NCBI GenBank assembly: GCA_029565935.1
Contig: JAKQNF010000036.1
Location: 5,552-37,551 of the forward strand
From: Bacillota bacterium
Lineage (GTDB): Bacteria; Bacillota; DTU025; MWDF01
DNA length: 32,000 nucleotides
Reading direction: 5' to 3'
The notes under the pieces are model-generated. The model had not been told where the DNA came from. It did no database searches and saw only the letters and a program-made list of their open reading frames with translations. Each line of letters opens with the position of its first letter. Within the stretch, counting starts at the first letter, position 1. The position numbers and the translations under genes are program-made. Shown in pieces: positions 2,272 to 32,000 of the stretch.

Positions 2272-2361
2272 TGCTACGACGCCCACGGCGGGAACCAAAA
2301 GCCCCTGTGGGCGTCAAATGACTTGATGGAGGAAAAAGCTGACCTACAAGGAGGGTTTGAA

Positions 2362-7071: not shown

Positions 7072-7092
7072 TCAGTGACATGATCGAGAACC

Positions 7093-7130
7093 GGCGCCGC
7101 GGACTGTGCCATCGCGCCATCCGCGGCGCC
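7093..7130 (+). terminator. Strong GC hairpin after the giant gene (possible terminator, weak U-tract)
   Basis: Perfect 11-bp inverted repeat GGCGCCGCGGA (7093-7103) / TCCGCGGCGCC (7120-7130). Only TT follows, so intrinsic-terminator status is uncertain. Confidence 0.35.
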
Positions 7131-7149
7131 TTCCATCGGAGGGGAGACA

Positions 7150-8319
7150 TTGGGGACCATCAAGCTCTACAAGGGCAAGGACAGGAGAATCAGGGCGGGG
7201 CACCTGTGGATATTCGAAGGTGAGATAGACGAGGTCCGCGAAGCCGCGCCGGGGGACATCGTCGACGTGGTGAACCACCAGGGCAGCTTCCTGGGGAAGG
7301 CCATGGTGAGCGGCTCTGAGACGCTCAAGGCGCGCATCATGGCAAGGAAGGACGTGCCGATAGACGAAGCCTTCTTCGCTAGGGCCCTTGAAGGCTGCCT
7401 GGAATATAGGAGGAGGGTCGCTCCCGACGCCACATGCTACAGGCTGGTCAACAGCGAGGGGGACCTGCTGCCGGGCCTAACCGTGGACGTATACGAAGAC
7501 GTGTTCGTACTGCAAGCGACGACCTACGGCATGGACATAAGGAAGCGCATGCTAGCAGAGCTGGTGGCGAAGCTTTTGGGGACCGGCAAGGCCTATGAGC
7601 GGGACGACATGCCGGTAAGGCGGTATGAGAAGCTAGAGCCGGTCAAGGGTTTCTTGATGGGCGAGTTCGACACGCGAATCAGGATCAGGGAGAACGGAGC
7701 CGTCATGGACATAGACGTCTCCGAGGGGCAGAAGACTGGATATTACCTCGACCAGAGGGAGAACAGGTCGGCGGCGGCAGGGCTTTCGGCAGGGCTGCAC
7801 GTGCTGGATGCATTCTGCTACAACGGCAGCTTCGGAGTGCAGGCCGGCATCAAAGGCGCGGCCAGCGTCCATTTCATGGACTTGAGCGAGCCAGCCATCG
7901 AGAAGGCGAGGGAGAACGCAAGGCTCAACGGCATCGAGGGTATCAGCAGGTTCGAAACCGTGAACGCGTTCGACGAGCTGAACAAGCTTGCCAAGGAAGG
8001 GGCCCGGTATGACATGGTGATGCTGGACCCTCCTCCTTTTACGAGGAACAAGGAGGCCGTCGAGGGTGCGATAAGAGGCTACAAGGAGATAAACCTAAGG
8101 GGCATCAAGCTCACGAGGCCCGGCGGATACCTGGTTACTTCGAGCTGCTCCCAGCACATAGGGATGGAGCTGTTCAAGGAGATCATCCTGACGGCAGCGG
8201 CGGATGCAGGCAAGTATCTGCAGCTCGTGGAGGCGAGGTCGCAGGCGAAGGACCATACGAGGCTCCTTTCGATGCCGGAGACCGAATACCTGAAGTTTCT
8301 GATATTCAGGGTGGCATGA
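7150..8319 (+). CDS. rlmI: PUA-domain class I SAM-dependent rRNA (cytosine-C5) methyltransferase, RlmI/YwbD family
   Basis: 389 aa, collinear by eye with E. coli RlmI: N-terminal KGKDRRIRAGHLWIFEGEI, central QKTGYYLDQRENR, SAM-fold VLDAFCYNGSFGV, MLDPPPF, TSSCS. TTG start 7150 preceded by GGAGGGGAG (7138-7146). Confidence 0.85.
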   Translation: MGTIKLYKGKDRRIRAGHLWIFEGEIDEVREAAPGDIVDVVNHQGSFLGKAMVSGSETLKARIMARKDVPIDEAFFARALEGCLEYRRRVAPDATCYRLVNSEGDLLPGLTVDVYEDVFVLQATTYGMDIRKRMLAELVAKLLGTGKAYERDDMPVRRYEKLEPVKGFLMGEFDTRIRIRENGAVMDIDVSEGQKTGYYLDQRENRSAAAGLSAGLHVLDAFCYNGSFGVQAGIKGAASVHFMDLSEPAIEKARENARLNGIEGISRFETVNAFDELNKLAKEGARYDMVMLDPPPFTRNKEAVEGAIRGYKEINLRGIKLTRPGGYLVTSSCSQHIGMELFKEIILTAAADAGKYLQLVEARSQAKDHTRLLSMPETEYLKFLIFRVA

Positions 8320-13326: not shown

Positions 13327-14412
13327 ATGAGAATTTCCATTGGATCCGACCATGCTGGTTTCGAGCTCAGGAAGAAACTGATAGACAAGATAGTGTCGCT
13401 CGGACACGAGGCGATCGACCGCGGGCCGTACGCCTCGGCATCCGTGGACTATCCGGATTTTGCGGCCCTCGTGGCCGAGGATGTCATCAACGATAACGCG
13501 GAGCGCGGCGTCCTGGTCTGCGGAACGGGCATAGGCATGTCCATGGCCGCCAACAAAGTGCGCGGAATAAGAGCGGCGCTGGTATACGACATGGACACCG
13601 CTAAACTCTCCAGGCAGCACAATAACGCCAACATAATATGCCTCGGAGCCCGCACGCCTAGCGCGTCGATCGCGCCAGAGCTTCTGGAGACCTGGCTCGC
13701 CACGGAGTTCGAGGAAGGAAGGCACAGAAGGCGGGTCCATAAGATAGACAGCCTCGCGGCCTCGATGGAAGGCTGGGAGGGAGCCCCGAACGTGCACGTG
13801 ATCAAGCACCCTCTCATACAGCACAAGCTATGCCTGCTGCGCCAGAAGGAGACGGAGACGCGGCACTTCAGGGATCTGGTGTCCGAGATAGCCAAGCTGA
13901 TGGCATACGAGGTAACTAGGGACGTGCCCCTTTCCGAGGTCGACATAGAGACGCCGATATGCAGCACGAAGGGCAAGGTCATGGCGGGCAAGCACTTCGG
14001 CATCGTCGCAATATTGAGGGCAGGGCTGGCGATGGCGGAGTCGATGCTCGAGATAATGCCGGGCGCCAGGATGGGCCACATCGGCCTGTACAGGGACCCC
14101 CAGACGCTGAAGCCCGTGCAGTACTATGCCAAGCTGCCCAAAGACACCGCCGAAAGGAGCGTCATCCTGGTGGATCCGATGCTCGCGACGGGAGGGACGA
14201 TCGTGAAGGCGATCGACGTCCTTAAGGAAGCGGGCGCGAAGGGCATCAAGGTGGTCAGCATAGTCTCGGCCCCGGTGGGCATAAAGAAGGTATTGGAGGC
14301 GCACCCGGACGTTGAGATCTTCGTTGCCGCAGTGGACGAGAAGCTGAACGACCACGGCTACATCGTCCCCGGCCTAGGAGACGCCGGCGACAGGCTCTAC
14401 GGGACGAAGTAA
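13327..14412 (+). CDS. In-frame fusion of ribose-5-phosphate isomerase B (aa 1-~146) and uracil phosphoribosyltransferase (aa ~155-361)
   Basis: N-terminal [18 protein letters not shown]...[24 protein letters not shown]...[12 protein letters not shown] is full-length RpiB/LacAB. The C-terminal [12 protein letters not shown]...ILRAGL...[12 protein letters not shown]...[12 protein letters not shown]...[18 protein letters not shown] is full-length Upp. There is no stop between them. Confidence 0.9.
13775..13794 (+). promoter_or_regulatory. Retained internal SD (GGGAGGGAG) plus in-frame GTG at the rpiB-upp junction
   Basis: GGGAGGGAG at 13775-13783, with 8 nt to the in-frame GTG 13792, which opens [13 protein letters not shown], the normal Upp N-terminus. 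An in-frame ATG also occurs at 13765. Confidence 0.45.
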
Positions 14413-18364: not shown

Positions 18365-20041
18365 ATGATCTCCGGTCGGAAGCTGGCATATCCTCTTTCG
18401 CTGGTTTTGGTACTGCTCTTGGCCTTCTGCGTGAGCGCCTCGGCGCCGGTTTTCATGGATCCGAAGGACGTCAAGGCGGGCATGACCGGCTACGGGCTCA
18501 CTGTGTTCTGGGGGGACGAGCCGGAGACGTTCGACTTCTCCGTCATAGCGGTGACCAAGGGGGACACGAGTCTAGCGGACATGATACTCGTCAAGGTATC
18601 TGGACAGAAGATAGACGCGATAGGCGGCATAGCGGCCGGCATGAGCGGAAGTCCCTGCTACATAGGCGGGAAGCTCGTCGGGGCGCTGTCGCACGTACTG
18701 GAGGGCCCCGATCCTAAGATAGGCGTGGTGACTCCGATGAGCGTCATGGTGAGGCTCTTGGAGGCGGGCAAGCTGGCGGATTCCGCAAAGCCTTTCAAGG
18801 TCGCCGGCTGGGGCAGCTTCGTGCCGGTCGCCACTCCAGTGTGGGTGGGCGGGCTCGGTCCAAGGGCGCAAAAAGCCCTGGAGGCTTCTCTCGGCCTGAA
18901 GGGCTTCGCCTTAAGCCCCGCCATGGCGCTTGGCGCAGGTGGCATGGAAGATTCTAACGGGACGTTCGCCGCCGGCTCTTCGATCGCCGTACAGATGTGC
19001 AACGGAGACGTGGAGGCCGGGGCGATAGGCACTCTCACATGGACTGACGGGAGGAATTTCCTCGCATTCGGACATCCGATGCTTAACATCGGCTCGATCG
19101 AGATGCCGATGTCGAAATCGTCCGTGCTTGCCGTGCTGCCTTCGGACTCGTTCCCGTTCAAGCTGGGCACTTTCGGCAAGCCGGCCGCGGTCGTGACCGA
19201 GGACAGGACGTACGGGCTGGCCGGCGTGATAGGCAAAGACGCCAAGATGGCCGACGTCACGGTCAAGGCGAGCGACATGCAGACCGGACGCAGGAAGAGC
19301 GCGACCATAAGGTGCCTGCAGGACGAAAGGCTCATCTCGGAGCTCATAGGATCGGCCGTACTGTCGGTGATGGACGGCGTTACGATGAGGGTAGGGGAAG
19401 GCACCGTCTACCTGTCGGTGATAATAGAGGCGAAGCAGGGCAGCATCTTCAGGGAAGAGATGATCTGGTCCGGCTCCGACGTCGCCAATGAGGTAACCTC
19501 GGAGGTATCGGGCATGATATCGTTAATAGCCGGCAACGACGCCCAGGCCGCGGAGATCCTGAAGGTCCAGGTCAACGTCGACGTGGCGCCTTCCAGGATG
19601 ACGTCGGTGATCAAGGGGGTCACTCTGCCGGAGGGGGGCTTCGTGGCAGGGCAGACGCAGTCGATCGGCGTGGTCCTCAAGCCTTTCAGGGGGCAGGAAT
19701 ACACGAAGATGGTCGACATAGACCTTCCGGCTGACATCGGGCCGGGCCCCGTATCCGTGACCGTATACGGGGGCTCCTCCGAGGACGACGAAGGCTCCCT
19801 GGACATCGTGGACAAGGTGGGCGACGTGAGAGGCATCTCCCTGGAGGAGCTGCTTGGCAGGATAAGCACCGCCGACCAGAACAACGACCTCATCATAGAG
19901 ATATACAGCGACGCGGGCTCCTCGGAAGAGGACCTGCCGCCCGAGGACGGAGCTTACGAGCAGGAACCGCTCTACTCCGGAAGGATAGTTCTGCAGAGCA
20001 TAATACAAGGTTCGGCTGTCGAATACTCCGAAGTGCGGTAG
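18365..20041 (+). CDS. Secreted SpoIVB-like (peptidase S55 family) serine protease with an uncharacterised ~300-aa C-terminal region
   Basis: Signal peptide/anchor LSLVLVLLLAFCVSASA. GGIAAGMSGSPCYIGGKLVGALSHV (aa ~88-112) matches the SpoIVB catalytic-Ser motif. AIGTLTWTDGRNFLAFGHPM (aa ~220-239) matches the SpoIVB catalytic-His motif. Confidence 0.65.
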   Translation: MISGRKLAYPLSLVLVLLLAFCVSASAPVFMDPKDVKAGMTGYGLTVFWGDEPETFDFSVIAVTKGDTSLADMILVKVSGQKIDAIGGIAAGMSGSPCYIGGKLVGALSHVLEGPDPKIGVVTPMSVMVRLLEAGKLADSAKPFKVAGWGSFVPVATPVWVGGLGPRAQKALEASLGLKGFALSPAMALGAGGMEDSNGTFAAGSSIAVQMCNGDVEAGAIGTLTWTDGRNFLAFGHPMLNIGSIEMPMSKSSVLAVLPSDSFPFKLGTFGKPAAVVTEDRTYGLAGVIGKDAKMADVTVKASDMQTGRRKSATIRCLQDERLISELIGSAVLSVMDGVTMRVGEGTVYLSVIIEAKQGSIFREEMIWSGSDVANEVTSEVSGMISLIAGNDAQAAEILKVQVNVDVAPSRMTSVIKGVTLPEGGFVAGQTQSIGVVLKPFRGQEYTKMVDIDLPADIGPGPVSVTVYGGSSEDDEGSLDIVDKVGDVRGISLEELLGRISTADQNNDLIIEIYSDAGSSEEDLPPEDGAYEQEPLYSGRIVLQSIIQGSAVEYSEVR

Positions 20042-20173
20042 AATATAAAGGGCATGGCCGGGAACAGGCACGGGGCCTTGAGCGTTTCATTCATTAGTTG
20101 CGTCCGGGGCGTTTTGGTAATACGGGCTCTCACGACGGACTCCCACTCAGCTCGACCATCAGGAGGTAAGGTA

Positions 20174-21874
20174 ATGTTAAGTAACTGCAAGAGCAGGACG
20201 ATGATCTTGCTGACGCTGGCATTGGCGATCGCTTTGGCGGTCTCCGGCACTGCGTCGGCACAGTCGTACGGCCGCCTGGCCGGCATAGAGATCGAAGGCA
20301 ACAAGAAGCTCGACGCCGAATACATAAAGGGCCTGCTACCGCTGACCATAGGGATGGATCTGACGCAGGAGGCCCTCGACAAGGCGTTCGCCGCGTTGCA
20401 GGAAAGCGGCTACTTCGCCGACCTGGGGGCGCGCTCGCAGGTCTTCCTCGGAGGAATTAAGCTGATCGTGACGGTCTTGGAGTTCCCCGACCTCAAGGCT
20501 ATAAACATAGAGGGCAACACCCTTATGAGCGACGATGAGCTCCTTTCCAGGATGACGTCGCAGGTGGGCAAGATAATCAACGTCAACGCCCTGAAGAAGG
20601 ACCTGGACAGCATAATCCAGATCTACAAGGACAAGGGCTACGTGGCTAGCATAGAACCCGAGATAGGCATGGACGGCATCGTGCTGGTCAAGATGACCGA
20701 ATGGAAGGTCGGCTCGATACTGATCTCCGGCAACGACAAGACCAAGGAGCAGATCATAAGGCGCAGCATCAAGCTCGCGGAGGGCGACTTCATAGACAGC
20801 AAGGTCATAACCGACGACAGCCGCAGGATATACAACACGGGCATCTTCGACGAGGTCGGAGTGGAGCTCGAACCTCGCGAAGAGGGCGCCTACGCCGACG
20901 TGAAGTACGTGGTCAAGGAGAGCCAGACGGGCCTTTTCAACGTCGGCGCGACGTACAACTCTACTGAAGGGCTGATCGGCTACCTGGAGATCTCCGACAA
21001 GAACGTCTTCGGCTACGGCATCAAAGTATCCGGCAAGCTAGAGGCCGGAGGCAAGGAGAAGCTGGTCACCGGCGAGTTCAGCGTATCTACGCCGTATCTG
21101 TTCACTGACAAGTTGGAAGGCGGTCTCGAGTTCTACAGGCGCATGTCCAACAAGAAGATCGAACTCCCGCCGGACGGCGAGGAGGGGGACGTCGCCTACA
21201 AGCAATACAGGACCGGCGGTAGCATCTGGCTTGGCTACAACTTCGACCTGTACACTAAGGCGGGCGCATCTTTCAGGCTGGATTTCCTGCAGAACTCTGC
21301 CGAGACGCCGGATCCCGCAGTGCCGGAGGATTCCTCTACGAGGAGCATAACGCTTTCGCTGACGAGGGACACCAGGGACGATTTCATAAGCCCCACCAAG
21401 GGCTACACCGTGTACGCTTCGAGCGAATTCGCCGGAGGGATACTGGGCGGAGACGACAACTTCACGAAGCTGTACGCCCAGACAACGGGCTATTACGAAT
21501 TCAAGGACGGGCATGTCATAGCCGGAAGGCTCGGCATAGGCGGGGGCTTCCCCACTTTGCCTGAACATGCGAAGTACCTGCTCGGCGGCGGCACCAACAT
21601 GAGAGGCCTTAAGGAGCCCATAGCGGGCGACTACATAGTGTTCGCCAATGCGGAGTACAGGTTCAGGATCTATCAGGACATAGTGGGCGGCGTCGTGTTC
21701 TTCGACATGGGCGAAGCTTGGAACAAGGGCGAGAGCTTCACCTGGAACGGGCTCAAATACGGCGTGGGCATCGGGGCTAGGGTGACGATCCCGATGCTAG
21801 GGATGCTGAGGCTGGACTACGGTATCTCCAACGGGCAGGGCCGGGTGTATTTCGGCTTCGGTCATACGTTCTAG
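20174..21874 (+). CDS. bamA: Outer membrane protein assembly factor BamA (Omp85), apparently 3 POTRA domains plus a beta-barrel
   Basis: AGGAGG (20161-20166) precedes ATG 20174. Signal peptide MILLTLALAIALAVSGTASAQ. POTRA-like IEIEGNKKL..., INIEGNTLMSDDEL..., ILISGNDKTKEQIIRR.... Barrel with RGL/GGxxxxRG region (LLGGGTNMRGL) and a C-terminal beta-signal ...RVYFGFGHTF. The track's 20054 start adds 40 non-signal residues with no SD. Confidence 0.88.
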   Translation: MLSNCKSRTMILLTLALAIALAVSGTASAQSYGRLAGIEIEGNKKLDAEYIKGLLPLTIGMDLTQEALDKAFAALQESGYFADLGARSQVFLGGIKLIVTVLEFPDLKAINIEGNTLMSDDELLSRMTSQVGKIINVNALKKDLDSIIQIYKDKGYVASIEPEIGMDGIVLVKMTEWKVGSILISGNDKTKEQIIRRSIKLAEGDFIDSKVITDDSRRIYNTGIFDEVGVELEPREEGAYADVKYVVKESQTGLFNVGATYNSTEGLIGYLEISDKNVFGYGIKVSGKLEAGGKEKLVTGEFSVSTPYLFTDKLEGGLEFYRRMSNKKIELPPDGEEGDVAYKQYRTGGSIWLGYNFDLYTKAGASFRLDFLQNSAETPDPAVPEDSSTRSITLSLTRDTRDDFISPTKGYTVYASSEFAGGILGGDDNFTKLYAQTTGYYEFKDGHVIAGRLGIGGGFPTLPEHAKYLLGGGTNMRGLKEPIAGDYIVFANAEYRFRIYQDIVGGVVFFDMGEAWNKGESFTWNGLKYGVGIGARVTIPMLGMLRLDYGISNGQGRVYFGFGHTF

Positions 21875-21885
21875 TATATAAGTGA

Positions 21886-21915
21886 ATGACAACTTGCGAA
21901 GTTAAGAATTATAAT
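21886..21915 (+). promoter_or_regulatory. Sigma70-like promoter candidate upstream of skp
   Basis: ATGACA (21886-21891), 18-nt spacer, TATAAT (21910-21915), in an AT-rich 89-bp gap. A 7-bp inverted repeat TGACAAC (21887-21893) / GTTGTCA (21923-21929) brackets the -10. Confidence 0.4.
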
Positions 21916-21963: not shown

Positions 21964-22422
21964 ATGAAGAACCTTTTTAGGAACACCACGGCAGTAATCA
22001 TAGCGATAGCGCTCATTGCGATCGCAGCCACCATCAGCAACCTTACTACCGGCAAGGCAGGGGCGGCCCCGGATTACGCCGTGATCGGGCATATCGACAC
22101 GGACAAGCTCAACTCGGAGTTCCCCGCCCTAAAGACCGCATGGGAGGCGGTAGCGGTAAAGAAGGCCGAGCTTGAGAAGGACCTCAACAAGAAGGCAGAG
22201 GGCCAGGACCAGGACACCAAGACCAAGCTCGTAGAGCAGTACAACACGACCTACAACGACTACGCCAAGAAGACCCTGGATCCTGCGTACGCCAAGCTCG
22301 AAGAGGCTGTCAAGGCGGTTGCCAAGGACAAGGGAGTGACCGTGATCCTCAATAGTTCGATAGTCATAGAAGGCGGCATCGACATGACGGCCGCGGTACT
22401 CCAGAAGGGCGGGGCGAAGTAA
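21964..22422 (+). CDS. skp: Periplasmic chaperone Skp/OmpH family
   Basis: 152 aa. N-terminal hydrophobic signal, then a Lys/Glu-rich helical arm (KKAELEKDLNKKAEGQDQDTKTKLVEQYN). Closes with AVKAVAKDKGVTVILNSS, typical of OmpH. Lies directly after bamA. Confidence 0.78.
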   Translation: MKNLFRNTTAVIIAIALIAIAATISNLTTGKAGAAPDYAVIGHIDTDKLNSEFPALKTAWEAVAVKKAELEKDLNKKAEGQDQDTKTKLVEQYNTTYNDYAKKTLDPAYAKLEEAVKAVAKDKGVTVILNSSIVIEGGIDMTAAVLQKGGAK

Positions 22423-22491: not shown

Positions 22492-25400
22492 ATGAGGAAG
22501 CTTGACCGGTATGTGATGCGGGAATTTCTCGGACCTTTCCTTGCAGCGATAACCGCATTCATAGTCATATCGCTCAGCGTCCAGCTGTTCTGGCTGGCGG
22601 AGATGGTCGTTGTCAAGCACACCCCCCTCGCCACGGTGCTCAAGCTCATAATGTTCAACATGCCCGCGGCCATCGTCCAGGTGCTGCCATTCGCCACACT
22701 CTTCGGGGTGCTCCTCAGCCTAGGCAGGCTCAGCCGCGACAGCGAGCTTTCCATAATGAGGGCGGCCGGACTGAGGCTTTCCAGGATATCCCTTCCGCTC
22801 ATCATCCTATCTATATTCATAAGCCTGTTCGGCTTCTACATGGGCGACCAGGTCGCTCCCAAGGCCAATCTCGAATCCAGGAACATAGTGAACAAGATGA
22901 TACTCGGAGAGAGCATACCCAGCATCGACAACAACGTGTTCTTCCGGGGGCCCGACAATAAGTTCTTCTACATAGGGCGCATAAGCGAGGACAGGGCCAC
23001 CGTCCAGGACGTGATGATCTACGACATCGGATACGGGAAGTACCCCCAGCTGATAACCGCCTCCAAGGGCAGGGCGGATTCCGGGACCTGGGTCTTCGAG
23101 GACGGCAACATACACGAATGCGGCCAGGACGGCAGGGTGGCCTCGACGGCCCATTTCGACGTCCTCGAGATAAAGATGGAAAGGGCCGTAACGGACTACA
23201 CAAACTCCGGCAGGACCACGTCCGAGATGTCCATGAAGGAGCTTAAGGACAGCATCGACCTCTTCTCCAAGAGCGGGATAAGGGCCAAGAACCTGCTGAT
23301 CGACTACTACTTGAAGATGGCCCAGCCGCTCTCCTCCCTGATCTTCGCCATGCTCGCCGTGCCTCTTGCCGTAAGGAGCCCCAGGAAAGGCGGCGCCGTC
23401 TACAGCATCGGTGCGGGCATCGGGATAATAACCCTGTACTTCATATTCGAATCCGTGGTGAGATCGTACGGCATGCTGCAGGCGACCAGGATACAGCCCT
23501 GGCTTGCCGCATGGTCCGCGGACATAATATTCCTTGCCGCGGCCCTAATCCTGTTGTTGAAGGCCGACGCGAGGAAGATGGGCAAAAGGGCCAAAACACG
23601 CAAAGGGCCCGCCGCACTGTCACTGATGGTACTTGCGGCCATCCTCCTCATCATGCCAGGCACTTCGTCCGCCGCGGGGACGGCAGTGAAGGTGAGCGCC
23701 CAGAGGCTCTTCTACGACGGTGGCGACGTCTGGAGGGCCGAGGGAGGCGTGACGATATCCTTCGACGATGTGACCATCACCGCCGGAAACGCCGCAATAG
23801 ACGTGGTTACGGGCCTTGCCGAGCTTGGCGGGCTTGTCACCGTCACGACCAAGGAAAGCGAAGTGTCTGCGGTAAGCGCCACATGCAATATCAAGACGAA
23901 ACAGATATCGTTCGATACCTTCGAAGGCAGGGTGAGCGACGAGCGGGTCAAGGGCTACATATACATCAGCGGCGAGAAGTTCGTCGAGGACGACGGATCG
24001 TACAAGCTCACGGGAGGATACCTAACCACTTGCGACCTTCCCCAGCCTCATTACAGGATCGAGGCCGAGAGCATCGAGTTTACGAACGAAGACTACATAA
24101 TCGCAAGGAACGTATCCTACTTCGAGGCCAACCTGAGGCTGTTCAAGCTGCCGTACCTTAGCATCCCCCTTAGGGAGGAGGACAGGATGATCCTCCCCGA
24201 GTTCGGCTGGAGCAGCGGCGACGGGGTCTACGTCAAGACGACCATGAAGAGGAAGCTTAACGACGCGAACAGGCTGACCATAAGGCTGGACCTGTTCCAG
24301 ATAAGCGGGCTGGGCGCCGGCGTGCGCCACGACTACACCATCGAAGGGATAGGAGACGGTTACTACAGCCTTTACGGAGTAAAGAGCTTCTTCGACCCTT
24401 CCGCGTCCTGGACCGCGGAGGTATCGCAATCGGTGAGCCTGCCGCTGGAGGTCAAGGCCGACGTGAAGTACTCGGTAAAGGGCACCGTCGACAAGCTCGG
24501 CAATTTCCGCGACGACCAATATACGGAGCTCAAGCTCTCAAGGAACGCCAAGGACGACAAGACCTCGGCATCGGTATCCTACAGATTCAGCGGCACTAAC
24601 GAGGACTCCTCGACGCTGAACCTTTCCGCCACCCACTCATCTACCTTGGCGGAAGGGTTCAAGCTGAGCGGCAACGTAAATTACAGAAAGATAGTCCTGG
24701 ATGGCACTCTTAAGCAGGAGTACTTGAACTACAAGGCCACGCTGGTGCACACCGGCCAGGACGGCAAGCTTACCATAAACTTACAGGCCGCGGACACGAT
24801 GGACGAGAAGCAGGAAGTCGTCCTTTCCTCGCTAAAAAGGCTTCCCGAGATGCAGATCGACATGTTCAGGATCAAGCTTGGCAGCCTTCCTGCCGGGATT
24901 ACGGCCAAGTTCCTCGCCGGCAGGTACGTCGAGAGGATACTGAACACTACCCCGACGGAATACCTCGACGCCGTGAAGGGCGAGGCCCAGGCGGACCTTT
25001 CGTTGGACAGGGTCGACCTTTGGGGCTACGGGTCTTTCGACCTCGGAGGGAGCTTCATAGGCAGCCTCTACTCGACTGGCGACGCCAGGGCCTACCTGAG
25101 CGCTTCGACCTCCCTTACGGTAAAGCCGGTGAGCGGCTGGGACATAAAGCTCTCATATGATTATTCGAAGAAATTCGGCCTGTCACCGTACAGGTTCGAT
25201 TCCTTGAGCGACAGGAACAAAATATCGGCATCGACATCGGCTTCTTTCTACGGCTTCAGGCTCACCGCTTCCACCGGATACGACTTCGTGAAGGCCGCGT
25301 TCGACCCATTCACCGCGGTGGCGGCGTACAGCTACCAGGACAAGTACCAGGCGGACCTCACGATGAGGTTCGCACTGCCGGATTTCTCCTTGTCGTACGT

Positions 25401-25731
25401 GCTCGGAAGGGTGACGGTCAAGCCGACCGAGGACATCAACCTCAAGTTCGGCCTCGAGTACAGCGGCACCCTCAAGAAGCTGAGCAAGGTGGAGACCAGC
25501 GGGGATGTCAGGTTCCTCAAGGAATGGCGGGTGGCATGGGCGGCGATATACGATATCGCGAGAGAGGGCCTCAGGAAGGCCGACATCGCGGTTACGAAGG
25601 ACCTGCACTGCAGGGAGATCACGGCAGGGTATCAGATCGTCGAGCAGAGGTTCTTCGTGAACTTGAAATTCAAGGCGTTCCCTGACGTTCCTATAGGCAT
25701 AGGGACGGACGAATGGACCCTTTTCAAGTGA
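22492..25731 (+). CDS. Single ORF encoding a complete LptF/LptG-family LPS-export permease (22492-23577) fused in frame to a complete LptD/OstA outer-membrane protein (23578-25731)
   Basis: N-terminal MRKLDRYVMREFLGPFLAAITAFIVI..., six TM helices and a periplasmic insert between TM3 and TM4 (YjgP/YjgQ architecture), ending ...IIFLAAALILLLKADARK. Then MGKRAKTRKGPAALSLMVLAAILLIMPGTSSAAG (signal peptide). Then an OstA-like jellyroll (VKVSAQRLFYDGGDVWRAEGGVTISFDDVTITAGNAAID). Then the LptD-like YLTTCDLPQPHYRIEAESIEF...LFKLPYLSIPL and a long beta-strand region ending RFFVNLKFKAF. The track and my reading both show no stop in 1079 codons. Confidence 0.85.
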   Translation: MRKLDRYVMREFLGPFLAAITAFIVISLSVQLFWLAEMVVVKHTPLATVLKLIMFNMPAAIVQVLPFATLFGVLLSLGRLSRDSELSIMRAAGLRLSRISLPLIILSIFISLFGFYMGDQVAPKANLESRNIVNKMILGESIPSIDNNVFFRGPDNKFFYIGRISEDRATVQDVMIYDIGYGKYPQLITASKGRADSGTWVFEDGNIHECGQDGRVASTAHFDVLEIKMERAVTDYTNSGRTTSEMSMKELKDSIDLFSKSGIRAKNLLIDYYLKMAQPLSSLIFAMLAVPLAVRSPRKGGAVYSIGAGIGIITLYFIFESVVRSYGMLQATRIQPWLAAWSADIIFLAAALILLLKADARKMGKRAKTRKGPAALSLMVLAAILLIMPGTSSAAGTAVKVSAQRLFYDGGDVWRAEGGVTISFDDVTITAGNAAIDVVTGLAELGGLVTVTTKESEVSAVSATCNIKTKQISFDTFEGRVSDERVKGYIYISGEKFVEDDGSYKLTGGYLTTCDLPQPHYRIEAESIEFTNEDYIIARNVSYFEANLRLFKLPYLSIPLREEDRMILPEFGWSSGDGVYVKTTMKRKLNDANRLTIRLDLFQISGLGAGVRHDYTIEGIGDGYYSLYGVKSFFDPSASWTAEVSQSVSLPLEVKADVKYSVKGTVDKLGNFRDDQYTELKLSRNAKDDKTSASVSYRFSGTNEDSSTLNLSATHSSTLAEGFKLSGNVNYRKIVLDGTLKQEYLNYKATLVHTGQDGKLTINLQAADTMDEKQEVVLSSLKRLPEMQIDMFRIKLGSLPAGITAKFLAGRYVERILNTTPTEYLDAVKGEAQADLSLDRVDLWGYGSFDLGGSFIGSLYSTGDARAYLSASTSLTVKPVSGWDIKLSYDYSKKFGLSPYRFDSLSDRNKISASTSASFYGFRLTASTGYDFVKAAFDPFTAVAAYSYQDKYQADLTMRFALPDFSLSYVLGRVTVKPTEDINLKFGLEYSGTLKKLSKVETSGDVRFLKEWRVAWAAIYDIAREGLRKADIAVTKDLHCREITAGYQIVEQRFFVNLKFKAFPDVPIGIGTDEWTLFK
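23578..23676 (+). other. Embedded Sec-type signal peptide (or 7th TM helix) at the LptF/G-LptD junction
   Basis: An in-frame ATG at 23578 opens a basic n-region (KRAKTRK), an h-region (AALSLMVLAAILLIM) and a c-region (PGTSSAA|G). GAGGAAG lies immediately upstream. The codon before the ATG is AAG, one substitution from TAG. Confidence 0.7.
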
Positions 25732-25754: not shown

Positions 25755-26396
25755 TTGAACCTCAGGACGGGGCTGGTCATATTCCTCGTTTTGGCCCTTG
25801 CGACTGCGGCCGTATACTACTACGGCTTCGTGGCTCCTGAGCCCGAGGCCGCAAAGGTGCAGGCGCCAGAGGACAAGGACGCGCCCGAGGTGCTGATCAA
25901 GGGGCTTTCGATGTCCAGCTGGACGGACGGGGAGAAAGTCTGGGAGATGGAGGTCGAGAGGATGGAACTGCCCAGGTTCGGCAGGAACACCGTGCTCTAC
26001 GACATAACCGATGGCACTATCTTCCGCGACAAGGGCCCTTATCTGGGATTCAGCGCGGGTATGGCGAAGGTCGACGGCAGGAACAGGATGGAGTTCTCAG
26101 GGGGCGTCGTCGTCGACTCTGAAGGTAAAACGCTCATGGCTGCAGAATCAATGTCTTGGGATCCTGCGACGCAGAAGGTGACGGTGCCCGGAGAAGCCAA
26201 GATAACGGCGGACGGAAGCACGGTCCTGGCGAAGAACCTTATCGTGGACCTCAATGACGAATACATATACACGACCGGGGAGATCATAGCCCAGCAGGGC
26301 GACAACATAAGGATTACCGCAGGCAACATGAAGTATTCGGTGACGAGGCGCGAGATGGAGATAATCGGCCCCTCGAAGATCGTCATCGACCTATAG
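25755..26396 (+). CDS. lptC: LptC-like inner-membrane-anchored LPS transport protein
   Basis: 213 aa. N-terminal TM anchor (GLVIFLVLALATAAVYYYGF) followed by OstA-like beta repeats. Sits directly upstream of lptA-lptB as in the canonical lptCAB order. TTG start with AAGGAG 8 nt upstream. Confidence 0.6.
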   Translation: MNLRTGLVIFLVLALATAAVYYYGFVAPEPEAAKVQAPEDKDAPEVLIKGLSMSSWTDGEKVWEMEVERMELPRFGRNTVLYDITDGTIFRDKGPYLGFSAGMAKVDGRNRMEFSGGVVVDSEGKTLMAAESMSWDPATQKVTVPGEAKITADGSTVLAKNLIVDLNDEYIYTTGEIIAQQGDNIRITAGNMKYSVTRREMEIIGPSKIVIDL

Positions 26397-26408: not shown

Positions 26409-27077
26409 ATGATGTCTAGGACCTTGATCAGGCTGATGTCCGTGGCGATGCTCGCCGCAATAGTGCTGGCGGCAGGTACCGTATCGGCCGCGAAGCAAGT
26501 GACCATCACCGCGACGCGCAAGCTGAACTACCAGGGCGCCAAGGGCGACGCCATGGTGGAGGGCAACGTGCGGATAGAGTACGGCTCGACCATCATAAAC
26601 GCCGAGAAGGTGCTCTTCAACAGCGACACGAAGACCGCTAAGGTGGACGGCGGAGTCCGGATCGCCCAGGACAACATAGTGATAACGGCCGACAAGATGG
26701 ACGCCGATTTCAAGAACGACAAGGTGAAGGTCAGCGGCAACGTGAAGCTTGAGCTCACCGAGACGCTCACTGAGATGGACGAGGCCGGCAAGCCCAAGAA
26801 GGACGTGGTGGTGCTGCTGACGTCCAGCATGGAGATAGACATCAACACCAACGACTTCAAGGCCACGGGCGGTGTCACGATAACAAAGAATAAGCAGAAG
26901 GTCCAGGCGGGCGAGGCGGCGTACGTCGACGCCGAGAAGAAGATGACCCTGATCACAGGCGTGATGATAGAGACCGAGGATGGGGACACCGTCAAGTCCG
27001 AAAAGGCGGTAGTATACACCGACAAGGAAGCCTTCGAGGCAGAGGGCGAGAAGATAGAGATCAACTTTACGGTCTAG
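26409..27077 (+). CDS. lptA: LptA/OstA-family periplasmic LPS transport protein
   Basis: Signal peptide LMSVAMLAAIVLAAGTVSAA. Repeated OstA pattern (AMVEGNVRIEYGSTIINAEKVLFNSDT..AKVDGGVRIAQDNIVITADKMDADF..VKVSGNVKL; GGVTITKNKQKVQAGEAAYVD). Confidence 0.78.
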   Translation: MMSRTLIRLMSVAMLAAIVLAAGTVSAAKQVTITATRKLNYQGAKGDAMVEGNVRIEYGSTIINAEKVLFNSDTKTAKVDGGVRIAQDNIVITADKMDADFKNDKVKVSGNVKLELTETLTEMDEAGKPKKDVVVLLTSSMEIDINTNDFKATGGVTITKNKQKVQAGEAAYVDAEKKMTLITGVMIETEDGDTVKSEKAVVYTDKEAFEAEGEKIEINFTV

Positions 27078-27093: not shown

Positions 27094-27813
27094 ATGGGCA
27101 TAAGGGCTACCAATCTTACCAAGTCGTTCTCCGGGCGCACCGTCGTCAACGGGGTCGACCTGGAGCTCGAAAGGGGCGAGGTGGTCGGGCTGTTCGGGCC
27201 GAACGGGGCCGGCAAGACGACGACTTTCTACATGCTCCTGGGCCTCGAAGCGCCCGATTCGGGGACCATCCAGGTGGACGGCACCGATGCCACGTACCTT
27301 CCAGTGCACATGAGGGCGCAGCTGGGCATAGGCTACCTCGCTCAGGAGCCGTCGATCTTCAGGCGCATGAGCGTGGAGTCGAACGTCGCCTCCGTGCTAG
27401 AGACGATGAAGCTCGCCAAAAGGCAGGTCACGGAGAAGACGGCGGAGCTGATGGAGGCGTTCAACCTCACCGGGATAAGGAAGCAGATGGGCTATACGCT
27501 ATCGGGAGGGGAGCGCAGGAGGGTCGAGATAGCGAGGGCCGTGGCCACATCCCCGTCCTATCTGCTGCTGGACGAGCCGTTCACGGGGGTAGACCCGCTG
27601 GCCGTCCTGGAGATCCAGGGGATTGTCAGGAAGCTCAGCTCAAAGGGCCTGGGGATATTGATCACCGACCATAACGTGAGGGACACCATGGCCATAACCA
27701 ACAGAGGGTATATAATGTATACGGGCAACATCCTGGTTTCGGGCACCCCGGGGCAGATAGCGCAGGACCCGCTGGCCAGGAGGTTCTACCTGGGCGACGC
27801 ATTCGATCTTTGA
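27094..27813 (+). CDS. lptB: LPS export ABC transporter ATP-binding protein LptB
   Basis: 239 aa. Walker A GPNGAGKTTTFYML, signature LSGGERRRVEIARA, Walker B LLLDEPFTGVDP, H-loop ITDHNVR. Typical LptB tail ...DPLARRFYLGDAF. Confidence 0.9.
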   Translation: MGIRATNLTKSFSGRTVVNGVDLELERGEVVGLFGPNGAGKTTTFYMLLGLEAPDSGTIQVDGTDATYLPVHMRAQLGIGYLAQEPSIFRRMSVESNVASVLETMKLAKRQVTEKTAELMEAFNLTGIRKQMGYTLSGGERRRVEIARAVATSPSYLLLDEPFTGVDPLAVLEIQGIVRKLSSKGLGILITDHNVRDTMAITNRGYIMYTGNILVSGTPGQIAQDPLARRFYLGDAFDL

Positions 27814-29428: not shown

Positions 29429-32000
29429 ATGAAGAGAACCGTAGCCATGCTAATTGCGGTTCTGATTGCCATGGCGGTAGTGATGCCTGCGATGGCAAGC
29501 CCTTACCCGGACGTTTCGGATCTTCATTGGGCGTCCGAATCGGTAAGGACACTGACCGCACTGGGCATCTTGGAAGGCTACCCCGACGGGACCTTCAAAG
29601 GCCCGCAGCCTACCACCAGGTATGAGATTGCAGTCATGATAGCCAGGCTGCTTAAGTACTTGGATCAGCAGATCACCGCACGCGTAGCGGAAGTAGAGAA
29701 GAAGATACCTACTGCAGCCGAACCGGCTCCCGTTACCACCCCTACTCCCGTACCTACACCGGCGCCTGTGACCACGGTAGTCCAGGTCGAACCAGACCAG
29801 ACTATACTAGAGACCATAATCAGGGAGAAGATAGAAGCGCTGGTGGGTCCGAAGCTCGAGGACATCGACGAGAGGATAGCCGAGCTATATGCGATGATCC
29901 AAGACCTTAGGACCGAGTTCTCCCGCGAGATATCGATCCTTGGAGTGCGCGTCGATGCCCTCGACGAGCAGCTTAAGCAGCTAGCCGCCAAGGTCGCCAA
30001 GAACGAGGCGGACATAGCGGCGCTGAAACTCCAGCTCGATCCGGCAATCGCAAGGATAGCGGGCCTCGAGAAGAGGACCGATGCCATCGAGAAGGAGTTG
30101 GCGAACCTCAACGCAGGACTGACGAAGATCGCGACAGTACAGCCTGGGCAGCCGGCTCCGGTGGTAACGACCACACAGCCCGCGCCGATAATCACGACCG
30201 TACTGGAAGGCGCGACCCAGGCAGAGCTGGACGCCGTCAAGAAGATGGTCCTCACCCTTGAGAAGGACAAGGTCGACGTGCTCTCCTCGAAGCTGGGAGT
30301 GCTTGATTCGAAGGTATTGGCGCTCGAGTCGAAGCTCAACAACACCGATACGATGATCGGCATGCTCGAGCTCAGGACGAGCGAGATCGAGACCTGGGTG
30401 TCCAAGGTAGGAAAGGACGTCGAGGTCGTTTCCAAGCAGGCCGAACAGAACGCGACCGACATAATCGACCTGTACGAGCTGAACTACAAGAACGCCGACG
30501 ACATCAACGCCCTTAAGGCGGAGATGGCAGCCAAGTTCGCGGCGATAGAAGACACGATGAGCAAGCACGGCGACGTGCTCGCCGCAGAGACCGGCATCAA
30601 CAAGGAAGGCCTCGCCCTCCTTAGGCTGGACCTGCTACAGGCACAAGACGACATAGACGCGCTCAAGCCGCTGGTCGACCAGGTCAATTACCTGTACAGC
30701 TGCTGCGACGCGGTCAACGTCAAGCTAGAAGCGCTCGATGAGAAGGTCGCGATGCTCAACATGGACCTCGTAGCCCTCGAAAGCGAGAAGGTAGACAATG
30801 CCATGCTGAGGATAGAGCTTCTCGAGCCCCAGGTGGCCGACCTGTTGGAGAAATACGGGGCGCTGGCGGCACAGGTCCAGGGCAACTCCGATGACATCAA
30901 TGACCTGTACATCCAGCAGAACCACACTACCAACGTAATGAACAACCTCGTGGCGGCGGACGCGGCCATGAACGAAAGGGTATCCAAGCTCGAAGCCGAG
31001 AACAAGATAAAGGCGGACGAGCTGAGCGCAAAGGTCGCGGCCCTCGAAGCGGCGGCCAAGGACAGCGCCTCTGAAGCCCTCAGCCTCAAGAGCGGCCTGA
31101 TGGGACTTTCCGACACCCTGTCCAAGCTATGGGTCAACAAGTTCCTGCTCTCCGGGACGCTTCTCTTGGAGTTCAAGGACGTGGCGGTCCAGTACGGAAC
31201 CCCGTTCGTCGATCCGTTCGACAACTCTGACCCGCTAGATGCGATCACACCGACTAACAAGTACTACGCCAAGCTCTCGCTCACAGGCACGATCAAGCCC
31301 GAGCCCGGCGTGGAGATCAACGTCGGCATCAACGCGGATCTCGACACCTACGGCATAACCGATGCGAGCGCATACGTATACAGCGGCGACGTCGACATCA
31401 AGGTAACCGGGCCCAACGGCTCGGGCCAGCTGCTCGGCGGAGAGCTCACCAGGCCCAATTACATCGGCAAGTACGTGATGTCCGCGCTCAAGTTCAAGGA
31501 CACCAAGTACGAAGGCCTTGAGGGCTGGATGAAGTACACCCCCGAGCTCATGGACAACATGACGCTGGGCGCGTCGGCGATACTGGGCAAGCTCGGCTCC
31601 TCGACCGACTTCAACTATGTCTGGGGCCTCGCCGGCAACGCCAACTACGCCGATGTGGTAGACCTTACGCTCTACTACCTGGCGATAGACGACAGGCCGT
31701 TCTCCGGTGATAGCACCGTGACCTACAGCGAGAAGAACATAGGCGTCAACCTCGACCTCAAGCTGTCCGACACCTGGAAGGCCGGAGCATTCGCCAACGT
31801 GCTGCTCGCGACGGGCCTGCCGCTTCCCGAGAGCGCGGTAACCGCGTACATCGAGGGCAAGACGGGAGTCTGGAACACCAGCGTGAACTTCGAGCGTTTG
31901 GGCGCAAACTATGCACCGAAATTCGTAGAGTTCACAGATGACGATGATCCTGACATGATCGAGAACGACATAATGAACTTAGAAGTCAAGAACAGCATCG
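29429..32000 (+). CDS. SLH-domain / long coiled-coil / beta-barrel outer-membrane tether of the OmpM / Omp-alpha type (3' partial, runs off the window)
   Basis: Not in the ORF track because there is no stop before nt 32000. I translated it by hand from ATG 29429 (GGGGGG SD upstream). Signal peptide MKRTVAMLIAVLIAMAVVMPAMA. SLH domain PYPDVSDLHWASESVRTLTALGILEGYPDGTFKGPQPTTRYEIAVMIARLL. About 490 aa of heptad-rich sequence with two Pro/Thr-rich breaks. From ~aa 568 (31130) the sequence is beta-strand-like (YYAKLSLTGTIKPEPGVEINVGINADL, VDLTLYYLAID, IGVNLDLKLSDTWKAGAFANVLLA). All minus-strand ORFs here are its antisense shadows. Confidence 0.8.
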   Translation, partial: MKRTVAMLIAVLIAMAVVMPAMASPYPDVSDLHWASESVRTLTALGILEGYPDGTFKGPQPTTRYEIAVMIARLLKYLDQQITARVAEVEKKIPTAAEPAPVTTPTPVPTPAPVTTVVQVEPDQTILETIIREKIEALVGPKLEDIDERIAELYAMIQDLRTEFSREISILGVRVDALDEQLKQLAAKVAKNEADIAALKLQLDPAIARIAGLEKRTDAIEKELANLNAGLTKIATVQPGQPAPVVTTTQPAPIITTVLEGATQAELDAVKKMVLTLEKDKVDVLSSKLGVLDSKVLALESKLNNTDTMIGMLELRTSEIETWVSKVGKDVEVVSKQAEQNATDIIDLYELNYKNADDINALKAEMAAKFAAIEDTMSKHGDVLAAETGINKEGLALLRLDLLQAQDDIDALKPLVDQVNYLYSCCDAVNVKLEALDEKVAMLNMDLVALESEKVDNAMLRIELLEPQVADLLEKYGALAAQVQGNSDDINDLYIQQNHTTNVMNNLVAADAAMNERVSKLEAENKIKADELSAKVAALEAAAKDSASEALSLKSGLMGLSDTLSKLWVNKFLLSGTLLLEFKDVAVQYGTPFVDPFDNSDPLDAITPTNKYYAKLSLTGTIKPEPGVEINVGINADLDTYGITDASAYVYSGDVDIKVTGPNGSGQLLGGELTRPNYIGKYVMSALKFKDTKYEGLEGWMKYTPELMDNMTLGASAILGKLGSSTDFNYVWGLAGNANYADVVDLTLYYLAIDDRPFSGDSTVTYSEKNIGVNLDLKLSDTWKAGAFANVLLATGLPLPESAVTAYIEGKTGVWNTSVNFERLGANYAPKFVEFTDDDDPDMIENDIMNLEVKNSI

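Follow-up and report, generated by a model that had tools for sequence, protein, structure and literature searches.

We describe here a gene in which the inner-membrane and outer-membrane ends of the lipopolysaccharide transport (Lpt) machinery are encoded as one polypeptide. The gene lies on the + strand of a stretch of 32,000 nucleotides from a Bacillota bacterium (assembly GCA_029565935.1, contig JAKQNF010000036.1, positions 5,552 to 37,551; hereafter the window). A single open reading frame (ORF) begins with a complete permease of the LptF/LptG type (LptF/G), continues without interruption into a stretch resembling a signal peptide, and ends with a part that has the fold of LptD. The fusion is genuine, anciently fixed and conserved in many lineages of diderm Bacillota. 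We consider it fairly probable that the product is a polyprotein precursor, in which the seventh hydrophobic segment serves as an internal signal peptide, with cleavage by signal peptidase I. A preliminary description of this DNA had offered four readings: this polyprotein, an uncleaved chain spanning the envelope, two products through internal initiation, and a recent stop loss or base-call error. The conserved pattern at the junction suggests that the first of these fits best.

The junction in the window reads GCC GAC GCG AGG AAG ATG GGC AAA AGG, translated as ...KADARK-MGKRAKTRKGPAALSLMVLAAILLIMPGTSSAAGTAVKV..., and contains no stop codon. The ATG (23578) is codon 363 of the frame (M363) and is preceded by AAG, which differs from TAG by one substitution. 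Both the ORF list and the junction DNA bear out that the ORF is seamless. Coordinates of all features are collected in Table 1.

The permease half is readily recognised. Residues 6-357 match PF03739 (LptF_LptG) across the whole profile (1-353/353; 282.1 bits against a cut-off of 27.9, expectation value (E) 8e-84), and the hydropathy profile shows six transmembrane segments (TM1-6), a seventh hydrophobic segment at 374-392 and no more beyond. The NCBIfam equivalogs (TIGR04407/TIGR04408) are not reached (LptG 200.2 bits against 240, LptF 178.2 against 230), in keeping with the single, undifferentiated LptF/G type found in diderm Firmicutes. Two AlphaFold models were made, one with 12 sequences that is confident in the C-terminal part only (model 1) and one with 37 sequences (model 2). 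In model 2 the mean predicted local distance difference test score (pLDDT) is 78.6, with both domains at 70-95 and values below 50 only at residues 363-396; the permease module lies at 70-86, with strands at 149-238, and the C-terminal part at 80-95. When model 2 is compared with the PDB using Foldseek, the LptG/LptF chains of LptB2FG(C) rank next below the LptDs (6mjp_G with E 7.5e-17 and a TM-score of 0.69, 8frn_G with a TM-score of 0.76, both target-normalised). The full-length profile match and the fold together confirm the N-terminal half as an LptF/G permease.

Within the window the fused ORF is the lone match to PF03739; the scan covered + strand ORFs of at least 120 amino acids (aa) and, of the overlapping minus-strand ORFs, two near the window end. 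Among the ORFs of 120 aa or more that were scanned, none could be recognised as lptE; the scan left aside small ORFs and the genome beyond the window. For the ORFs scanned, the earlier observation of one lptF/G paralogue and no recognisable lptE is therefore upheld. Diderm Firmicutes have already been described as showing both traits (PMC5007114, PMC13018214), so that neither is unusual here.

For the C-terminal 717 residues a Pfam scan at E up to 0.01 finds nothing (PF04453, PF19838 and PF03968 are all unmatched). The sole LptD signal in NCBIfam is weak (E 0.006, residues 511-579; PRK04423, 14.8 bits against a cut-off of 944), and a phmmer search against the PDB sequences does not match LptD. 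A profile built from the family itself (alignment A2) does match solved LptDs (8h1r_A with E 1.7e-6, 7omm_A with E 0.0028). The match runs through the jellyroll into the beginning of the barrel (profile positions 39-228), including the TTC...PHY...P.L.IPL segment, and the TTCDLPQPHYRIEA motif aligns with the jellyroll/barrel junction of the solved structures. More distant members of the family carry PF19838, PF04453 or PF03968.

The structural comparison points in the same direction: for both AlphaFold models the best 15 Foldseek matches in the PDB are all LptD. Full-length LptD 5iv9_A is matched with E 2.8e-27 (model 1) and 3.1e-25 (model 2) over about 780 aligned columns; TM-scores to the LptDs are 0.55-0.61 (target-normalised) and identity to the solved LptDs is 10-12%. 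DSSP assigns about 12 jellyroll strands at 399-559 and about 28-30 strands at 570-1060, as in the large type of LptD barrel. Cys514 (in TTCD) never varies across the family and Cys1040 (in DLHCRE) hardly ever does; by analogy with E. coli LptD, the latter is likely the disulfide partner of the former. We infer from the modelled fold and from the lpt/lpx gene neighbourhood that the C-terminal part functions as LptD. The jellyroll of OstA type, the TTCD motif and the long barrel named in the preliminary description are all seen, through profile, DSSP strands and conservation, and an AlphaFold model of the full chain, which it had proposed, recovers both the permease and the LptD fold. Its "full LptD" is supported by the family profile and the fold, and goes beyond what plain hidden Markov model (HMM) scans show: at Pfam thresholds the permease half is found and the LptD half is not, the latter requiring the profile of its own family.

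The same architecture recurs in other genomes. Close homologues of the C-terminal part (57-89% identity) are all 1079-1083 aa long and all contain PF03739. At the DNA level the fused ORF is uninterrupted in loci L001-L003, L081-L083, L084, L085 and L088-L090; L001 belongs to Firmicutes bacterium ADurb.Bin153, the closest genome (unclassified Bacillota at NCBI), L002 and L003 to metagenome-assembled genomes (MAGs) of uncultured Clostridia. ADurb.Bin153 and several of the related MAGs apparently originate from anaerobic digesters. Word-indexed homologue searches with the C-terminal part yielded 9-11 proteins only. When 1.84 billion cluster representatives were searched exhaustively with an HMM, the LptD part proved to have 8227 relatives, of which nearly all are standalone proteins of about 720-950 aa. 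The same search brought up two further fused clusters, P0013 (1100 aa) and P0059 (1106 aa), each with a full PF03739 module, and the window protein aligns colinearly with both right through the junction (36% and 29% identity, respectively). Searches seeded with these two added about 30 clusters at 90% identity, with lengths of 1072-1110 aa. In total the fused ORF occurs in more than 30 protein clusters with identity down to about 25%. The sources are Bacillota MAGs and one Halanaerobiales MAG, from ENA, JGI, NCBI and Logan assemblies, and one exact sequence (P0166) is present on at least 23 contigs. Source names of the fused proteins are 'LptF/LptG family permease', 'lipopolysaccharide export system permease protein' and 'hypothetical protein'.

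These data bear directly on the possibility that the window merely shows two ordinary genes joined by a miscalled base or by a TAG lost very recently. The AAG ahead of the ATG, one substitution from a stop, had made this worth considering. Against it, the fusion is conserved in more than 30 clusters to about 25% identity and in dozens of independent assemblies, junction sequences and linker lengths vary and yet are all in frame, and both halves are under evident purifying selection, as judged from the identity by segment. An artefact or pseudogene has a next to negligible probability, and the reading as a recent stop loss or sequencing error is refuted. The search of related genomes that had been proposed earlier thus finds a continuous ORF in independent assemblies from many projects.

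One candidate for a split form, a 621-aa protein (P0007) from the MAG MFD03899.bin.1.111 (L004), was rejected: its junction is fused and intact, and the shortened length results from two frameshifts in the barrel (6684-8154), in this single MAG assembly. These frameshifts are either an assembly error or gene decay.

Genuine split loci do exist in Bacillota, with the same LptD family and the same gene order (lptF/G, lptD-like, lptC, lptA) as around the fusion. They differ in that a stop codon and 97-327 nucleotides part lptF/G from lptD. In the Limnochordia MAG of L006 an lptF/G of 363 aa ends in ...VFWVERW and a stop codon, followed after 97 nucleotides by a 762-aa LptD-like gene and then by lptC and lptA. 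Its LptD has an ordinary N-terminal signal peptide, MQQYARRLMMFVLMLFLFLGENQVVFA/QEK (...LFLGENQVVFA/QEK; here and below a slash marks the predicted cut). In L087 the two genes are 327 nucleotides apart, again followed by lptC and lptA. Judged from these sequences, the fusion derives from an ancestral adjacent lptF/G-lptD pair.

How often this occurred was addressed with a bootstrapped neighbour-joining tree of the LptD parts, comprising 33 fused sequences (100 bootstraps, and 200 more for the drawn tree). Three fused groups (g1-g3) have 100% support each, whereas the fused set as a whole is non-monophyletic: g1 + g2 + P0059 have nine standalone LptDs as their sister, among them P0060 of the split locus L087, and the Halanaerobiales-like g3 falls outside. 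Non-monophyly implies either one fusion and one fission or two fusions. A single origin, suggested by a first neighbour-joining tree that grouped all fused sequences, is not supported by this larger tree.

To characterise the junction, we compared 33 full-length fused proteins. After TM6 all 33 have a linker (9-34 aa) with a net positive charge, and behind it all 33 have a stretch of strong hydrophobicity. A site with small residues at positions -3 and -1 comes next in nearly all of them, a few residues ahead of the first jellyroll strand; variants are SAA/G, ASA/Q, AVA/E, VSA/Y, FSA/S, VFA/E and others. In the window protein the charged segment ahead of the hydrophobic stretch counts 15 aa with a net charge of +7 (script count). 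It forms the n-region of a classical pattern with A374-M388 as h-region and PGTSSAA/G as c-region, in agreement with the (-3,-1) rule at S393-A394-A395/G396 (between nucleotides 23676 and 23677). The signal-like segment begins at residue 357-363 of 1079, after six transmembrane helices, and hence not at the N-terminus of the precursor.

Mean identity across the fused proteins is lowest in precisely this region: 0.17 for the linker and 0.20 for the hydrophobic segment (0.33 within the window's clade), against 0.41-0.56 for TM1-6 and 0.33-0.36 for LptD. Insertions and deletions in the linker are frequent and all in frame, and the h-region has a pLDDT below 50 in both AlphaFold models. The low conservation of linker and hydrophobic segment indicates that they evolve like a signal peptide, unlike an integral helix of the transporter. 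The intact internal signal peptide proposed in the preliminary description is thereby supported as a predicted feature, the n-h pattern occurring in 33/33 proteins and small-x-small in nearly as many.

Combining these observations, we propose the following sequence of events. TM1-6 of LptF/G would insert co-translationally, leaving the C-terminus in the cytoplasm, the side suggested for the end of TM6 by the solved LptB2FG structures that the fold matches. The positive linker (K357-P373) and A374-M388 would then engage SecYEG with the N-terminal side in and the C-terminal side out, and export of the 684-residue LptD part would begin. Signal peptidase I would cut after S393-A394-A395. LptF/G would keep the signal segment as its seventh helix and measure about 395 aa, and mature LptD (G396-K1079) would be released to the periplasm, where Skp would chaperone it and BamA insert it in the outer membrane. 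LptC and LptA would finally bridge LptB2(F/G)2 to LptD as in the canonical machine. The genes for these partners are retained around the fusion, skp and bamA immediately upstream and lptC and lptA immediately downstream. If this holds, LptF/G and LptD are made at a fixed 1:1 ratio, and LptD is forced onto a co-translational route.

It might be argued that the chain is never cut, so that the seventh helix is a permanent anchor and one polypeptide either resides in both membranes or keeps its LptD part at the inner membrane. Indeed, the sequence holds no proof of cleavage, and the hydrophobic segment is long enough to cross a bilayer. Only about 3 residues, however, lie between the point where the segment is predicted to end and the first jellyroll strand. 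With such a short spacer and a jellyroll sitting directly on the barrel, an uncleaved chain would need the two membranes within a few nanometres of each other. The very long SLH protein of the locus (at least 857 aa, with a long coiled coil in its L081 orthologue) argues for a wide periplasm instead, and the retention of lptC and lptA leads one to expect a canonical bridge; on all three grounds release seems necessary. In addition, the segment evolves at the speed of a signal peptide, and folding by BamA normally requires a released substrate. The uncleaved trans-envelope chain is accordingly very unlikely. A shade less probable again is a more speculative variant in which the chain stays uncut, or is cut late, once the barrel is already in the outer membrane, and serves as a covalent tether or assembly template for the Lpt bridge; in a milder form, the leftover seventh helix would assume or modulate the role of the LptC transmembrane helix.

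A different explanation is that ribosomes initiate internally at ATG 23578, so that LptD is made as an ordinary pre-protein and the read-through fusion is a minor or tolerated by-product. In the window's clade 5 of 6 members have a methionine at the junction, precisely at the position expected for the start of a separate lptD, and purine-rich GAGG or AGGAGG lies directly upstream of the ATG. Across the fused proteins, however, the linker contains a methionine in only 10/33 and lacks it in 23/33. Three of the ten loci with DNA (L081, L089, L090) have no in-frame ATG, GTG or TTG in the linker at all, and L085 and L088 offer only a TTG at or within the hydrophobic stretch. P0004 (from L081) has ACA at the position of the ATG, identically in three independent assemblies or sequencing runs. 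The motif resembling a Shine-Dalgarno sequence consists of the Arg/Lys codons AGG AAG or AGG AGG at 0-3 nucleotides from the ATG; in the window GAGG is 3 nucleotides off, whereas most window genes with a recognisable GGAGG-type motif have about 6-11. Moreover, the stop codon has never been regained across a divergence to about 25% identity, and the fusion protein would be made regardless by upstream ribosomes reading through. A consensus match, which is a weak test, reveals nothing promoter-like within the fusion ORF on the + strand. As a general mechanism internal initiation is disfavoured and we rate it as rather unlikely. With the methionine missing in most lineages and the Shine-Dalgarno-like motif misplaced, the ATG of M363 looks like a decaying relic, and probably is what remains of the former lptD start codon.

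Should LptD be released by proteolysis, the enzyme might still be another than signal peptidase I, for instance an S55 peptidase similar to SpoIVB, or the cut might fall elsewhere in the linker. A gene for such a peptidase is part of the same cluster, and is also found upstream in the fusion-bearing clusters L081, L084, L088 and L090. In the Halanaerobiales-like L085, on the other hand, no S55 gene is present within 4.4 kilobases upstream of the fusion, the linker is without any other conserved motif, and what is conserved (the classical n-h-c organisation with small-x-small) is the recognition pattern of signal peptidase I. We regard this alternative as quite unlikely.

Several points nonetheless weigh against the favoured model of a polyprotein split by signal peptidase I. 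The cleavage itself is something we infer from the sequence at the junction. The uncharged stretch counts 28 residues (script count) and extends into the mature N-terminus, so a stable anchor is also conceivable. Processing by signal peptidase I behind a multi-spanning membrane protein is rare in bacteria. A seventh helix left on LptF/G might interfere with docking of the transmembrane helix of LptC. The window's clade retains the ATG at the junction, and some internal initiation there is conceivable. Finally, LptF/G is reported to be a homodimer in Acetonema (PMC13018214); if it is homodimeric here as well, 1:1 synthesis would give two LptD per transporter, for which there is no obvious rationale.

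The fusion locus resembles the lpt loci of diderm Firmicutes in culture (Acetonema longum and other Negativicutes; PMC13018214, PMC5007114), which likewise have a single LptF/G thought to be homodimeric and no LptE, and in which the lpt genes are grouped with bamA, skp and genes for lipopolysaccharide synthesis. In A. longum, however, LptF/G (F7NLZ6) is separate from the LptD candidates F7NLY8 (480 aa, 16 strands) and F7NII2 (26 strands) (PMC13018214), whereas here LptD is joined to LptF/G and its barrel is large (about 28-30 DSSP strands). With the canonical machine of Proteobacteria (E. coli LptB2FGC-LptA-LptDE) the locus shares all modules: a permease with a periplasmic jellyroll, LptB, LptC with a transmembrane anchor, LptA, and an LptD with jellyroll, large barrel and conserved cysteine pair. 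That machine keeps lptF, lptG and lptD as individual genes, and its LptD comes with an N-terminal signal peptide and with the plug LptE; the fusion locus has one LptF/G type, permease and LptD in one ORF, and no lptE recognised among the window ORFs scanned.

Our searches also returned proteins of about 760-797 aa (P0188-P0202) that look like tandem LptF-LptG fusions, some being named 'LptF/LptG' plus 'LptG/LptF' by their source. These too unite Lpt components in one ORF, but both halves belong to the same membrane, and there is neither an export signal nor an outer-membrane partner. The nearest mechanistic precedent known to us is the cytochrome b-c1 polyprotein FbcH of Bradyrhizobium japonicum, reportedly described by Thony-Meyer and colleagues around 1989-1991. 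There, the ORF is said to lead from a multi-spanning inner-membrane protein through an internal signal sequence to an exported protein of the same complex, with the precursor being split at that sequence and the products staying in or at the inner membrane. The fusion likewise combines, in one ORF, a multi-spanning protein with a (probably) cytoplasmic C-terminus, an internal signal-like sequence and an exported component of the same machine. In contrast to FbcH, the part released here would be an outer-membrane beta-barrel, which has to traverse the periplasm and depends on BamA for its folding. We know of no precedent for the release of an outer-membrane barrel from such a polyprotein, and the synthesis of an outer-membrane beta-barrel as the tail of an inner-membrane ATP-binding cassette permease is, to our knowledge, unprecedented as well.

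No LptD was reported in Negativicutes and Halanaerobiales (PMC5007114), and lptD is stated never to have been found in 'atypical diderms' (PMC8871954); its absence has entered arguments on the evolution of the outer membrane (PMC5007114, PMC8871954). Separate LptD candidates have been described in Acetonema (PMC13018214). In the literature on LptD/LptF fusions, Firmicutes, Limnochordia and Halanaerobiales we found no description of an LptF/G-LptD fusion; real and conserved, it is apparently undescribed. A full LptD is present in several Bacillota lineages, including a Halanaerobiales MAG, hidden in the C-terminal 700 residues of genes annotated as permeases, and the evolutionary accounting of LptD in Firmicutes is affected. 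As a rule for annotation, Bacillota proteins with PF03739 and a length of about 1070-1110 aa can be expected to carry LptD. The fusion may also represent a new route of outer-membrane protein biogenesis. Should signal peptidase I indeed split it, this would be a natural case of polyprotein processing that feeds BamA and that matches both ends of an envelope-spanning machine in quantity, timing and location.

Table 1. Position of the fused gene, its predicted segments and the surrounding genes in the window (aa, amino acids; TM, transmembrane segment).
Feature	Position	Strand	Remarks
SpoIVB-like S55 serine peptidase	18365-20041	+	just upstream of bamA
bamA (Omp85 + POTRA)	20054-21874	+	insertase expected to fold released LptD
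Promoter-like site upstream of skp	21886-21915	+	11/12 matches; consensus match only
skp/ompH periplasmic chaperone	21964-22422	+	Pfam
Fused LptF/G-LptD ORF	22492-25731	+	1079 aa plus stop; permease, predicted internal signal peptide, LptD
LptF/LptG permease module	22507-23562	+	residues 6-357; six TM; periplasmic beta-jellyroll between TM3 and TM4
Permease TM6	23503-23559	+	residues 338-356; hydropathy; C-terminal end probably cytoplasmic
Cytoplasmic linker, putative n-region	23560-23610	+	residues 357-373, KADARKMGKRAKTRKGP
In-frame ATG (M363)	23578-23580	+	GAGG 3 nucleotides upstream
Putative h-region, seventh TM segment	23611-23655	+	residues 374-388, AALSLMVLAAILLIM; hydropathy
Putative c-region	23656-23676	+	residues 389-395, PGTSSAA; predicted signal peptidase I cut after A395
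LptD N-terminal beta-jellyroll, OstA/LptA-like	23686-24168	+	residues ~399-559; DSSP strands, profile matches to PDB LptD
TTCDLPQPHYRIEA motif with Cys514	24025-24066	+	residues 512-525; family conservation
LptD beta-barrel	24199-25671	+	residues ~570-1060; ~28-30 DSSP strands
Cys1040 in DLHCRE motif	25609-25611	+	nearly invariant in family
lptC, N-terminal TM anchor	25755-26396	+	Pfam
lptA	26409-27077	+	Pfam
lptB ATPase	27094-27813	+	Pfam
DUF3084 coiled-coil protein, 446 aa	27827-29167	+	follows lptB
SLH-domain protein, at least 857 aa	29429-32000	+	continues past window end

Pfam assignments place murA first in the gene order around the fusion, followed on the same strand by the S55 peptidase, bamA, skp, the fusion, lptC, lptA, lptB, the DUF3084 protein and the long SLH protein. 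The other fused loci invariably lie among outer-membrane or lipopolysaccharide genes, with either (S55)-TamB or unknown-BamA-Skp-fusion-LptC-LptA-(unknown of about 780 aa)-LptB, or a cluster with lpx genes. The listed bamA ORF begins 40 codons ahead of a typical signal peptide, MLSNCKSRTMILLTLALAIALAVSGTASA/QSY, and translation probably begins at one of two ATGs, at about 20174 or about 20201 (region 20054-20200). In the window's clade the DUF3084 protein always comes after lptB (L081, 13369-14709; L084, 10601-11944). The SLH-domain protein corresponds to the 'long OmpM rod' of the preliminary description; its orthologue in L081 has 1198 aa, with SLH and long coiled-coil matches (Rod_CreS, CCDC39). 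Two minus-strand ORFs (29665-30462 and 30688-31260) overlap the SLH gene and have no Pfam match, which makes them probably spurious.

A protein of about 710-790 aa without a Pfam family above threshold is encoded between lptA and lptB in L085 (8774-11140), L087 (9123-11258), L089 (10785-13124) and L090 (10833-13148), and has no counterpart in the window. It was considered as a second LptD and rejected: hhalign gives the L089 copy a probability of 0.05%, and the copies of L085, L087 and L089 show nothing above the Pfam threshold.

Elsewhere in the window, a second fusion (13327-14412, + strand, 361 aa) joins ribose-5-phosphate isomerase B (PF02502, residues 3-140) to uracil phosphoribosyltransferase (PF14681, residues 158-360). 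A large ORF at 2323-7071 (+ strand, 1582 aa) combines TPR repeats, fibronectin type III, four domains similar to the N-terminal domain of purple acid phosphatase, and a C-terminal F5/8 type C domain.

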